Positions 3,045 to 57,065 of a stretch of DNA of 64,000 nucleotides are shown one piece after another (the first letter of the stretch is position 1; each line of letters begins with the position of its first letter). The DNA is from Octopus vulgaris (lineage: Eukaryota): positions 4,402,001-4,466,000 of the forward strand of contig OX597829.1 of NCBI GenBank assembly GCA_951406725.2. Reading direction: 5' to 3'. The notes under the pieces are model-generated. The model did no database searches. It was not told where the DNA came from and was given only the letters and a program-made list of their open reading frames with translations. The position numbers and the translations under genes were made by a program.

Positions 3045-3165
3045 ATATATAGAAGGAGCTTCTACAGGACTAGAACTGTTTCATTCAAAAGAAATCATAA
3101 GGAAGCTCCTGATGATTTCTTTTGAATGAAACAGTTCTAGTCCTGTAGAAGCTCCTTCTATATAA
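3045..3165. repeat. Near-perfect palindrome (about 55-bp arms) made of two overlapping inverted hammerhead-like motifs
   Basis: tatagaaggagcttctacaggactagaactgtttcattcaaaagaaatcat ... atgatttcttttgaatgaaacagttctagtcctgtagaagctccttctata. Confidence 0.85.
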
Positions 3166-3295
3166 TAAATTAATTTACTCTGCTATGTATTGAGTACCTT
3201 ATTTACTGTGGTTAACCCCGACTCAACCCGGGACCTACATATATATATTTATATATATATATATGTATATTTCTCTTCTTGTTTTTCCTGTGTCC

Positions 3296-3332
3296 CTTTC
3301 TGTGAGAAGAGCGTAGACTCGAAACGTAAAAG
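3296..3332 (+). ncRNA. Degenerate minimal type I hammerhead motif (variant-core family)
   Basis: cttt-CTGTGAGAA-gagc gtag actc-GAAAC-GTA-aaag; homologous to the copies at 50152 and 57028. Confidence 0.4.
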
Positions 3333-3857
3333 ACTTTTTCTATTCCTGAGCGTTATACTAATACATCTGTTTGTTTTATACACCACCTGTCTTCGTCTTT
3401 TGTTTTTTTCGTAAACTCTCCCTATACATACATATATATATATATATATATATATATATATATATACGTATATATATGTGTATACATATATACATATATG
3501 ATTGAATCAATCAATCATATATATATATTTTAAATACATGTATGTATATATACATATATGTATTTTACATATATATTATATATACATACATACATGTTTA
3601 TATATATATTGATATGCATACATATGTATTTTATATATATATATATATATATCAATATATATATATATGCATATATATATATATACATACATGCTTATAT
3701 ATATATATATATATACATACATACATACATATATATATATATATATATATATATATATACACAGATACAGACATACATACAGACAGACAGACACACAGAC
3801 ACACACACACACACACACACACACACACACACACACACACACATATATATATATATA

Positions 3858-4183
3858 CTCTTTTACTTGTTTCAGTCATTTGAGTTTGGCCATGCTGGAG
3901 CGCCATCTTTACTCGAGCAAATTGGCACCAGGACTTATTCTTTAGAAGCCCAGTACTTATTCTATCGTTCTCTTTTGCCGAACAGCTAAGTTATGGGGAG
4001 GTAAACACACCAGCATCGGTTGTCAAGCGATGTTGGGGGGACAAACACTGACACACAAACATATACACACACATATATATATATACATATATATGACGGG
4101 CTTCTTTCAGTTTCCTTCTACCAAATCCATTTACAAGGCTTTGGTCGGCTCGAGGCTATAGTAGAAGACACTTGTCCAAGGTG
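3858..4183 (-). mobile_element. SINE family A (5'-truncated)
   Basis: Reverse-complement match to 8944-9336. Confidence 0.8.
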
Positions 4184-4324
4184 CATATATATATATATAT
4201 ATATATATATATATATATATATATATATATATATATATATATATACTTACATATATATACATATACATATATATATATGTGTGTGTGTATATATATATAT
4301 ATACATACATATATTTTTTCTGTA

Positions 4325-52808: not shown

Positions 52809-53199
52809 TCTGTTTGTAAAGTTCTGCCTGTATTTATATTATTGGTAAATGAAGTGGGGAGAGACAGAGAGTGAGTGTGTATATAATGGAGAATAGAGGG
52901 AGGGAGAAGGTGAAGGAGAGAGAGAGAGAGAGAGAGAGAGAGAGATAGTGGCAGGGAGAAAGAGGGATGGAGAAGGTGAAAGAGAGAGAATGTGTGTGTG
53001 TGTGTGTGTGTGTGTGTTTTAAAACTGTGTATTTTTCTATTTTTTCTTTTTTTCTTTTTTGGTTCTTTTTGTATTTTTTGGATGACCCGTGTAAGAAATG
53101 AAAATAGAGAAGGAAAAAGAGGGTTTGTTTTTCAATAGTAGGAGTGTTTCTATGTACACCCACACATATATCCTTACATATAAACATAAATATATATAT

Positions 53200-55560
53200 A
53201 TAGACGCAAACCAGAGAAACAGAGATGTGAAATGGAAACAAATAAACAAGTCCAACCGAAAATAATCAACCTGTCAAAGAAAATCCTGAGTTCTATACAA
53301 ATCAAAATCCTAGCAAGAGGTCTAAAATTTACCCCTACCCCCCGCAGATCGAACACAAATGAAATTAAGGACAATACTTTTGACTTCTGCCGAAAATTAC
53401 GCCTCACAGTAGCTCTTTACAACTACACCAGTGAAGATGATTCAATAGTGAAAAACAAAAGTGAGTACCATCCTACAAAAGGTAGAAATAAAGCACTTGA
53501 TGTTTTCTGTGATCACTTCACTTGTTTTCCTTACAATACCATTCCAAAACTACATATCAAATCCAACCTTAATTTAAACGAATGGAAAGACCTTGTCGAG
53601 CTAAAAAATGACTTAAACCTCACTATTAAAGAAGCCGACAAAGGAAGTGCGGTAGTATTGATGGATACAGAGTACTACAAAAATTTAATACTTCCCATGT
53701 TAGAAAATAATACTTACTATGAGAAACTAACATATTACAACCCACAGAGAACACTGAAAAACTTATCCTCCTTACTCCAAATTCATGGAAATGGTCTTAC
53801 AACACATGAAATAGACTATTTATCCAATTTCAAATAAAGTCCTAGTCTATTCTACGGATTACCCAAAATACATAAAAATCCACTCATTTGTGAAGCCTGC
53901 AAAGTCTCTACAAGCCTATGCATTAATGTCCATCCCCCTACTGACCTCAAACTCAGACCCATCATAGCTGGGCCTTCTTGCGAAACCCACCGTTTGAGCA
54001 ACTTCCTTGACATATTACTCAAACCTCTTTTAAAATATGTGAAAAGCTATATCAGGGATGACCTAGACATGCTGAACCACCTCCCGAAGACAGTAAAGGA
54101 CGGAACTCTACTGGTGTCTTTCGATGTGGTGAAGCTATACACTAATATCCCACACAACTATGGTATAGAAGCAATCACATTTTGGCTAGAAAAATACCCA
54201 GAAGAGATCCCAGGACGAATTAACCACAATTTTATAATTGAAGCACTGAAATTCGTCCTGTTTGAACAATCATTTCTTGTTCGATACTACTTACTATCGA
54301 CAGAAATGCGGAATTGCAATGGGGACCAGAGCTGCTCCAGTTATTGCAAACCTCGTAATGGGTTACCACGAACTTAAGTTATACCAATCATCACTAGAAA
54401 AATATGGCGCCTCTTTTAATTGCTACTTAAAGGAGAACTGGAAGAGATATTTAGATGATTGCTTCATACTTTGGCAAGATAGCATGGATCAACTCCTTAA
54501 TTTCAAAAGAATGCTCAACAACATACACAGCAATATACAATTCACTATGAAACACAACAGTAAGCAACTCCCTTTTCTAGACATCTTAATTATAATAGTT
54601 AACAACCACATAGAAACAGACATCTTTTATAAACCCACAGATTCTAAGCAATACCTATTATTTAACTCCTGCCACCCCAAACACATAAAAATCAACATAC
54701 CCTTTAACCTAGCAAAAAGAATCTGCACCATAGTTTCCGATACATACACTCGAGAACATAGACTCCTTGAACTTAGATCTACACTAACTAAAAGACACTA
54801 CCCAATCTCATTAGTAAATGAAGGCATCAAAAGAGCTAAGGAAATAGATATACAAAGGTTAAGGAAAACTAGCCGAAATACTAAATAAGACTTAAAAATA
54901 CTCCCGTACATCTCCACACATAACCCCAGAAACAACGAAGCCTTCAACAGCATCACCCCAAACCTTCCCATCCTCACAGCAGACAAAACAATGAACGAAA
55001 TTTTAAGCTCATATAAAATTATAAAAAGCAAAAAGCAACCGAAGTCACTGAAAAAAATATTAACCAGCGCTAGACTTTACCCACTAACAACTGAGCCAAA
55101 AGTGACAAAATGTGGACGTTCTAACTGTGGAACATGCCCCCACCTTCTGGAGGGTTCAGAATTCCAATTCAAATAAGGAGAAATATTTAAGATCAAATCA
55201 AATTTCAACTGCGCTTCAACAAATGTAATCTATGTCATGACATGCATAGGATGTGATAAACCCTGAATTAGACAAACAGGAATTTCGCTCCGTCAAAGAA
55301 TCACCATTCACAAAGAGCGAATCCGTCACCCACAATACAGACAGTTAAAGGTGAGTGAACACCAAGAAAGATGTGCCAGGAATCTTAATCTCAATTTCAA
55401 AATATTTCCCTTTTGCCAATGTTCACAGAACACCACAATTCAACAAAGGTTGAATAAAGAGGCATTTTTCATCAATAAATTTCTCCCCCAACTAAATATG
55501 AACACACAACTCAATACAGAACACTACTAACTCTTCAATTGAAACCACTAAACTCTATAC
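53200..55560 (+). mobile_element. Penelope-like retroelement (RT plus GIY-YIG), few disablements
   Basis: RGLKFTPTP, TIKEADKGSAVVLMD, FYGLPKIHK, SFDVVKLYTNIP, GIAMGT, KRYLDDCF, LPFLDI, NVIYVMTCIGC. Confidence 0.93.
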
Positions 55561-56808
55561 ACTTCCTACACCACTCACATCTCTAAATCCACAACTACTT
55601 ACCTCCCTTACAAATAATCTTTTTTTCTCAGAAACTATTAGACCTGACACCGTGTATTAACCGGTGTTGTTCAAACGATGAATAGCTTTGCGTAAACCAT
55701 TGGTTCGTTTTGTTCTCTTACTTTATTATCATCTTATAATCATCTCATAATAATGACTTTTATGACTCGTATTACTACCTCAGTCAATCTAAATGTATAT
55801 ATTTGTCGTTACCTGTCATAAATAACCTTTTTCTATTTGCAATATGCATTTTCGTTGATTTTTCATATTTTACCCTTACATTTCCACGTGTATTTTATAT
55901 TTTCTTTTCGTAGCATATTTCTACTATATATATATATATATAATTTAATAAATAAAATATATGCATACATACATATATGTACGTACCTACATCTACATGT
56001 ATATATACATGCATATATATATATATATCTATATATATATATATATATATATATATATATATATATATATATATATATATATGAGTACAGGACACCACAA
56101 ATAAACGTAGAACTCAACGAGAAACGAAAACATGAAAACAAACTAGGAAACGGACTTTTTTTAACAACGAAAAAACAGAGTACAAGACAAACAATACAAG
56201 GAATATTCCCCTTCATCAGCTGTCCTTGGTTCGACTCAATGCGTGTTTCGAAGGTAAGGACAGAACACGACCCGTCGAACCAGTCCTTCCTGCAAAAGAA
56301 TGAAATATATATATATATATATATATATATATATATATATATATATATATATATATATATATATATCCACAGACACTCACATATATATATACACATATGG
56401 AGGAACCTATTGTGTGTGTACATTTTCATAAACATTCATACATACATGTACTGGGTGTTCTTGAAAATGAGAAAGAAAGAAAGGGAAAAAATAAAATATA
56501 AAAATAAAAATATAAAGAAAATATTGTGTCCATTCTTTACTTGGCACTCCCTTGGGTTTCCAAAAGAACAGGTGGTTGACCATTCAATGTTTGATATACA
56601 TATATATATATATACACCTAAACACATATGAATATGTGTACATACACACACACAAACACACACACACACACACACACATACACACACACACACACACATA
56701 CATATTGTTAATCCAAACATGAAAATACAAAGAAAAAACGCAACAACGCGAGGATGTGGAACAAGTATAGTGTTATTGGACGCTCAGGAAATGAAAGAAA
56801 GACGGAGG

Positions 56809-56843
56809 GTTTAACGTTTCGAGCGGAGCTCTTCATCAGAAAC
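56809..56843 (-). ncRNA. Minimal type I hammerhead ribozyme with an extra A after A9
   Basis: Minus strand reads gttt-CTGATGA-A-gagc tcc gctc-GAAAC-GTT-aaac. Confidence 0.7.
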
Positions 56844-57027
56844 ATAGGAAAAGGAAAGATCCAAAGAAGGGAAGACGGAGGAAAAAAATCGCCAACGGTA
56901 CACACGCGGTCACATTTATATATACATACATACATATATATATATATATATAAACGCCTAGTTGAGTCGTTATCTCCTACACGCATTTTTTCTCTCATTC
57001 TTTCTCTCCTTGTTTCTTTTCTGTGTA

Positions 57028-57065
57028 TCTTTCTGTCGAAGAGCGTAGGCTCGAAACGTAAAAGA
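57028..57065 (+). ncRNA. Minimal hammerhead motif, variant core CUGUCGA plus A
   Basis: tcttt-CTGTCGA-A-gagc gtag gctc-GAAAC-GTA-aaaga. Confidence 0.5.

Follow-up and report, generated by a model that had tools for sequence, protein, structure and literature searches.

Short pieces of DNA in the genome of Octopus vulgaris carry motifs shaped like type I hammerhead ribozymes next to (TA)n microsatellites, which raises the question of whether they form a mobile population of their own or are remnants of larger retroelements. The stretch considered here (hereafter, the window) comprises 64,000 nucleotides of contig OX597829.1 (assembly GCA_951406725.2, positions 4,402,001 to 4,466,000, forward strand), and all coordinates are counted from its first letter. 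An earlier note on this DNA had named twelve such motifs, ascribed them to several families of Penelope-like elements (PLEs), and proposed that many belong to a non-autonomous, retrozyme-like population mobilized by neighboring PLEs. The motifs and their character were borne out, whereas the proposed population was not supported in the form given: the twelve motifs sit on short, microsatellite-ended units that are most likely the 3′ ends, i.e., pieces of the pseudo-long terminal repeats (pLTRs), of several PLE families, left when reverse transcription ended prematurely. The units are as follows:

49463–50022 (+): unit A, 560 bp, hammerhead at 49784–49880 with a CUGAUGA core at 49793
20618–21125 (−): unit D, a relative of A, hammerhead at 20844–20753 with a decayed stem II and stem III ACGAUCGU
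6306–6926 (+): unit C1, 621 bp, hammerhead at 6413–6538 with the doubly changed core CCGAAAA
37893–38524 (−): unit C2, 632 bp, perfect core at 38408, stem III ACAGCUGU, predicted cut at 38290
50091–50278 (+): family B copy, minimal hammerhead at 50152–50187 with the core CUGUAGA (A6U), an extra A after position 9 and stem III ACGU
56953–57162 (+): family B copy, core CUGUCGA at 57033
3270–3424 (+): family B copy of reduced length, one base inserted into its core at 3300
56703–56915 (−): unit B′, a 70% relative of B, canonical CUGAUGA core at 56839
52690–52895 (−): unit E, minimal hammerhead at 52808–52766 with stem III AGCU and a weak stem I
3046–3238 (+): unit F, which forms a hairpin (3046–3164) with its own inverted copy, Hydra-style hammerhead at 3101–3155
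51360–52568 (+): P, a Hydra-like 5′-truncated PLE with a remnant of the reverse transcriptase (RT) thumb and a GIY-YIG domain, stop codon near 52238
50520–51157 (−): inverted copy of the P 3′ end, hammerhead at 50791–50706

All twelve motifs were located at coordinates given beforehand. A strict descriptor, which demands the core CUGANGA with an NUH cleavage site, at least 4 bp next to the core in both stem I and stem II, and a self-complementary stem III, returns three matches with a perfect core (49793+, 56839− and 38408−). With up to one core mismatch there are seven, adding 50156+ and 57033+ (CUGUNGA) together with 52446+ and 50785− (CCGAAGA), and with two mismatches there are eight, adding 6417+ (CCGAAAA). 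In contrast, 60 block-wise dinucleotide shuffles gave means of 0 for the perfect core and 0.017 for one mismatch, while the reversed window gave 0 matches. The stems of 8/12 motifs thus pass the strict test at up to two core mismatches, and the remaining four fail it: 3109+ in unit F through a bulged stem I and a stem II of 3 bp with a U.U closure, 20839− in unit D through its decayed stem II, 52803− in unit E through its weak stem I, and 3300+ in the short B copy through its inserted core base. The core CUGANGA...GAAA with NUH is perfect in six of the twelve motifs; the others carry A6U (the three copies of B, one of which also has a base added), U4C (the two P copies), or U4C together with G8A (C1). 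A relaxed descriptor, which permits a pyrimidine mismatch closing stem II as well as bulges in stem I and was written post hoc, once the motifs of the Hydra clade of PLEs were known, places the six primary motifs of the earlier note at ranks 1–6 among 11 matches (scores 7.5–14.5), compared with a mean of 0.165 matches at a score of at least 7 in 200 shuffles.

The covariance-model and descriptor searches that had been suggested for this locus gave a divided answer, since the descriptors recover the motifs but the Rfam hammerhead models show no match in the three stretches scanned at E-values up to 10, and no hammerhead is found among the 150 of 260 matches listed for the whole window. Moreover, individual motifs fold with only weak z-scores (−2.05 to +0.64). 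Nevertheless, the motifs are real as a set, and single weak ones (E and D) could be non-functional. The strand of stem III is self-complementary in every motif, with predicted self-duplexes ranging from −1.7 (ACGU) to −12.8 kcal/mol, and only the stem III of unit F closes a hairpin alone, a pattern that fits the model in which such hammerheads act as dimers.

The stem covariation expected between related copies is also present, on the basis of few sequences, all of them copies in the window, and with no formal statistic. Units A and D, whose relatedness is reflected in an alignment z of 16.8, differ by two compensatory pairs in stem I (UUUUAG/CUAAAA versus UGCAG/CUGCA) and one in stem III, where the palindrome CAAUUG of A is replaced by CGAUCG in D. 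Likewise, stem I of B′ (GUUU/AAAC) differs from that of B (CUUU/AAAG) by one compensatory pair. In unit A, which has stem III ACAAUUGU, the predicted cut falls after position 49871, 151 nt from the 3′ end of the unit; in unit F, whose motif style was compared with File S2 of PMC8557442, it falls after 3147. Across the nine units measured, the distance from the predicted cut to the 3′ end of the unit is 49–397 nt.

These 3′ ends abut microsatellites. The window consists of AT-rich animal DNA in which 163 runs of (TA)5 or longer occur. For 11/12 units the 3′ end is no more than 20 nt away from a (TA)5 run, compared with 13% of random positions, an enrichment that is partly circular because the ends of single-copy units were set at the microsatellite. 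Among the many SINE-like (short interspersed element-like) repeats and long interspersed element (LINE) fragments of the window, one SINE-like family shows a like tendency (15/21 and 7/13 ends), and a second one does not (1/10 and 0/6). In the 5′ direction, the units that contain no open reading frame (ORF) extend only ~30–330 nt upstream of the core. No head-to-tail tandem array covering a motif is found within the window, nor do two motifs of the same family lie close together on one strand, so that dimer cleavage in cis is unavailable there. As a side observation, the short motif T(G/A)AG(C/T)(AC/GY) recurs in seven regions (A, D, E, F, B, B′ and 28340–28570), each time 13–69 nt ahead of the 3′ end; it was noticed post hoc and without a control, is not used as evidence here, and possibly represents a shared cis signal.

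The most complete anatomy is that of P, which is a truncated and inverted PLE insertion of the standard kind with full PLE features. Its hammerhead (52440–52525, core CCGAAGA) lies ~208 nt past the stop codon of the GIY-YIG ORF, and the inverted copy of its 3′ end is 99.8% identical over 502 bp and carries an extra tail of ~137 nt, so that two different P 3′ ends are represented. A second, inner inverted repeat with arms of ~110 bp occurs in the same insertion at 51163–51516, which makes two inverted segments in all. Apart from P, an inverted 5′-truncated copy is seen only in F. Truncated and inverted PLE insertions of this architecture have been described (PMC8557442, PMC8969392) and are explained by internal initiation of reverse transcription (PMC11167929). 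The Hydra clade has been defined by DKT and RWK in the RT and by a CxCX5C linker (PMC8557442). The window copy of P lacks the RT and shows no linker; its relatives are 36–38% alike, and the long ones contain DKT in 2/5 cases and a CxCx4-7C linker in 5/5, which suggests a Hydra-like affinity for P. These relatives of the GIY-YIG domain at 51.7 kb were recovered by an exhaustive protein search, while a word-indexed search found no full-length relative among 800 candidates. The other coding PLEs of the window are two decayed elements of the Neptune type:

24340–28570 (+): decayed Neptune-type PLE with RT, cysteine linker and GIY-YIG domain, ORF ending near 27697
53190–55922 (+): second decayed Neptune-type PLE, ORF at ~53.2–55.5 kb

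Both ORFs match proteins with RT and GIY-YIG domains, in which DKG is present in 120/120 and a Cx2-5CxxC linker in 112/120. Unit E lies inverted directly upstream of the 53-kb ORF and aligns with 28340–28570, the DNA behind the 24-kb ORF, which may hold a decayed hammerhead (z 7.9 in AT-rich sequence, with 0/200 shuffles as good). Thus, an ORF for RT and GIY-YIG upstream of the motif is present for P and, by way of 28340–28570, suggested for E.

The absence of ORFs from the other units can be read against PLE loci from outside the window. Among Neptune-like loci, a loose pattern finds a hammerhead core 83–447 nt past the ORF match in 9/15 loci with 3′ sequence, five of 20 close loci having been left out for want of almost any usable 3′ flank. 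The upstream reach of the ORF-less units is no longer than these 3′ untranslated regions (UTRs) of autonomous relatives, and the lack of an ORF therefore does not show non-autonomy, as had been suggested for the ORF-less (TA)n units; that idea retains some force for B and C, as discussed below. Among 86 outside PLE loci, 19 motifs in 17 loci were found, with minimal ACGU/AGCU-type stem III sequences alike to those of the window, and CUGANGA is the core of all 19, even with one mismatch permitted in the scan. At loci L081–L086, animal-type Neptune-like sequences lie on contigs of bacterial genome bins, most likely through host contamination.

The origin of the units may then be pictured as follows, drawing on known PLE biology. 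A tandem master copy located elsewhere would be transcribed, and its GIY-YIG nuclease would nick (TA)n DNA. Reverse transcription would begin within the RNA, 50–400 nt downstream of the hammerhead, and would usually halt within a few hundred bases, at times adding an inverted copy; a copy halted inside the pLTR would give exactly such ORF-less units. The resulting solo inserts would be dead ends, with no same-strand partner of the same family for dimer cleavage and with the RNA downstream of the start site missing. The hammerhead would act only in the tandem transcript of the master, either as a dimer or together with the protein of the element, and may be dispensable for insertion. Accordingly, a family could multiply despite a weakened core and yet keep its fold, perhaps as a protein-binding site. 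This scheme parallels the Poseidon element of the anole, in which the nuclease cuts AT-rich DNA, reverse transcription begins at two internal RNA sites, which account for the tail, hammerhead cleavage needs protein, and hammerhead mutants still insert in vitro (PMC11167929).

Family B is set apart by a change fixed in its core. Its three copies share 83–95% identity and a common 3′ end. The copy at 50086–50280 was aligned at 80% likeness to four public sequencing runs, two of contigs (X1 and X5) and two of raw DNA (X21 and X22). Matching contigs number 26,037 of 52.2 million in X1 and 1,580 in X5, counts that are evidence of neither copy number nor expression. In X21 and X22, which were included for their species label, no more than 9 and 34 of 12.9 million reads, respectively, fall on family B, none of them more than 95% alike. 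This is far below expectation for an abundant family of the same genome, perhaps because the label covers a different organism or because reads had been filtered, and no copy number was derived from these runs. A search for the family B pattern in metagenome contigs gave 0 matches. By depth-weighted counts, position 6 is A in only 0.67% (X1) and 0.14% (X5), a rarity which indicates that CUGU-N-GA, with U at position 6, is the state of the family rather than a product of local decay. At position 7 each of the four bases occurs (in X1, C 15%, G 14% and U 22%). Variation is also seen at H17, with U in 23%, at C15.2, with U in place of C in 8.6%, and at G16.2, with A in place of G in 10.7%; no other among the 36 hammerhead positions reaches 5% variation in X1 or X5. 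All four variable positions (7, 15.2, 16.2 and 17) are among the nine tolerated by the hammerhead fold (post hoc hypergeometric p 0.002).

The A6U core of family B is predicted to cleave poorly, since a natural A6C variant has a kobs below 0.1 per minute (PMC3088659) and single changes in the CUGA turn gave low activity (PMC9901934); U4C, the change found in P, is weak in vitro yet sufficient in a viroid (PMC3088659). A more far-reaching proposal, which we consider speculative and unlikely, is that B is a very abundant, ~200-bp non-autonomous cephalopod Penelope derivative whose hammerhead fold is under selection, with U fixed at position 6 and positions 7, 15.2/16.2 and 17 free. It would then represent either a new core variant working with the help of protein or of a dimer, or a muted fold kept as a signal for protein recognition.

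Several observations weigh against regarding all units as truncated PLE tails. Searches by tblastn or hidden Markov model with 270 PLE proteins found no coding remnant in A, B, B′, C, D, E or F, so that for none of these is a link to an autonomous element demonstrated, and only for E is one suggested. The 3′ region of the 53-kb Neptune-type ORF contains no hammerhead by either the strict or the relaxed descriptor. The contig depth along B, which is no measure of copy number, is approximately symmetric without a rise towards the 3′ end. C1 and C2, 84% identical, have both ends in common over ~630 bp (2/2 copies), and the 5′ ends of two of the three B copies lie within a few bases of each other. 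These ends would be explained if families B (~190–210 bp) and C (~630 bp) were true non-autonomous PLE derivatives, i.e., ORF-less masters copied in trans by PLE proteins, an explanation that is compatible with a truncation origin of the other units. It would also account for the lack of ORF remnants in B and C, for the four B/B′ copies in 64 kb and for the many X1 contigs on one B copy, and non-autonomous PLEs are known in Chlamydomonas (PMC8557442). Nevertheless, only three B and two C copies occur in the window, and at the 5′ side the third B copy lacks 35 nt. In addition, no common 5′ boundary of B appears among the 18 listed of 300 loose-end rows, no tandem master is seen, and the unit lengths fit fragments consisting of pLTR only. 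On balance, we regard this explanation as possible, if rather unlikely. Two internal fragments of family C without a hammerhead are also present, at 5650–5825 (−) and ~40122–40339 (+), the first being 97.7% identical to the neighboring C1.

That the units are monomers of animal non-LTR retrozymes, whose tandem repeats of 150–450 nt self-cleave into circular RNAs, is very improbable, in spite of the type I hammerheads on short ORF-less units and of the dispersed monomers, with a proposed pLTR origin, that occur in retrozyme families (bioRxiv 10.64898/2026.07.22.740005). No tandem array with a motif per unit exists in the window, the motifs are minimal or PLE-style and thus of the kind that PMC7229834 sets apart from retrozyme hammerheads, and the unit ends do not match the cleavage site, the 3′ ends lying downstream of the cut by the distances given above. 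Furthermore, the pair at 52440 and 50706 belongs to an ORF-bearing truncated PLE. Mobilization by the neighboring elements fares no better: only E resembles DNA behind one of the two Neptune-type ORFs, and as both of these are broken, they cannot be current helpers. Least credible of all is that repetitive, AT-rich DNA produced the motifs by chance, despite the missing Rfam matches, the weak folding z-scores and the several imperfect motifs; for the motif set as a whole, chance is ruled out by the shuffle controls together with the compensatory changes in A/D and B/B′, and the confinement of B variation to tolerated positions points the same way. The 3′ ends of PLEs, copied incompletely, thus remain the probable source of the units.

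Hammerhead-bearing PLEs that target (TA)n, as well as solo motifs on truncated copies, are already in print, and what appears to be new are these particular families and the fixed A6U core. Cervera and de la Pena (2014; PMC4209133) described thousands of solo minimal hammerheads per genome, most of the minimal motifs being solo and probably derived from truncated PLEs, and also opposite-strand pairs 100–700 bp apart. The window motifs resemble theirs in the short stem I, the extra base after position 9, the palindromic stem III, the occurrence of solo motifs and opposite-strand pairs, and the presence of several families per genome. Unlike those, A, C, D and P have long insertions in stem II (loops of 41–92 nt) and 8-nt palindromes, and neither the fixed A6U of B nor the U4C of P is mentioned in the portions of that paper examined. 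Among Hydra-clade PLEs, the Octopus bimaculoides element Hydra-1_Obim shows a preference for (TA)n and bears a hammerhead ~100 nt before its terminus (PMC8557442, Craig et al. 2021). Features in common with this clade are a C-terminal GIY-YIG domain, insertion into (TA)n, a hammerhead ~100 nt from the 3′ end, a stem III of 3–4 bp, inverted 5′ copies and a stem II often closed by U.U, as in unit F. However, the motif of Hydra-1_oBim in File S2 of that work differs in sequence, five window motifs are absent from the supplement text, and every Hydra core in File S2 is CUGANGA. The Neptune clade is represented by the two decayed ORFs, which show DKG, GLKF and the Cx2-5CxxC linker, and is alike in its microsatellite bias and in the minimal ACGU/AGCU hammerheads of related loci; a link to the window units is suggested only for E. 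With animal non-LTR retrozymes, which are defined by tandem units (PMC7229834, bioRxiv 10.64898/2026.07.22.740005), the units share ORF-less DNA with type I hammerheads and a probable derivation from PLEs, and they differ in lacking tandem organization and in having PLE-style rather than canonical motifs. A literature search, which did not extend to Repbase, found no published description of these families, of a fixed A6U/CUGUNGA core or of octopus copies of them.

With regard to the surroundings, one host gene was recognized in the window:

19675–20495 (+): last exon of a hairy/enhancer-of-split gene, from the end of the bHLH domain to WRPW

Its sole named homologue is squid HES1 (56%). Unit D lies antisense ~120 nt past the stop codon of this gene, possibly within its 3′ UTR. 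Tandem arrays with units of ~60 bp occupy 37547–37892, 40337–41319 and 41848–42117, in both orientations and with variable (TA)n between them, and adjoin a related-looking 39-bp array at 36570–37462; these arrays hold no convincing hammerhead, the single match at 36794 being low-scoring. Two related decayed LINE copies, 67% identical and encoding an AP endonuclease and an RT, lie at 30300–33800 and 44650–48570 (−), the first of them with a zf-RVT domain.

Overall, the finding corresponds to the PLE debris expected in a cephalopod genome, and it matters mainly for the annotation of repeats. According to a survey of Octopus vulgaris repeats (PMC13282606), recently active insertions include 893 unclassified SINE families, and ribozymes are not mentioned in the portions of its main text examined; some short unclassified repeats of this species may be PLE tails. 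Moreover, PLE hammerheads may be dispensable for insertion, as catalytic mutants left insertion in vitro unaffected (PMC11167929). If the proposal made above for family B were true, this family, with the rest of its fold conserved, would serve as a natural experiment on whether PLE transposition depends on hammerhead cleavage, and its canonical sister B′ would permit a direct comparison.

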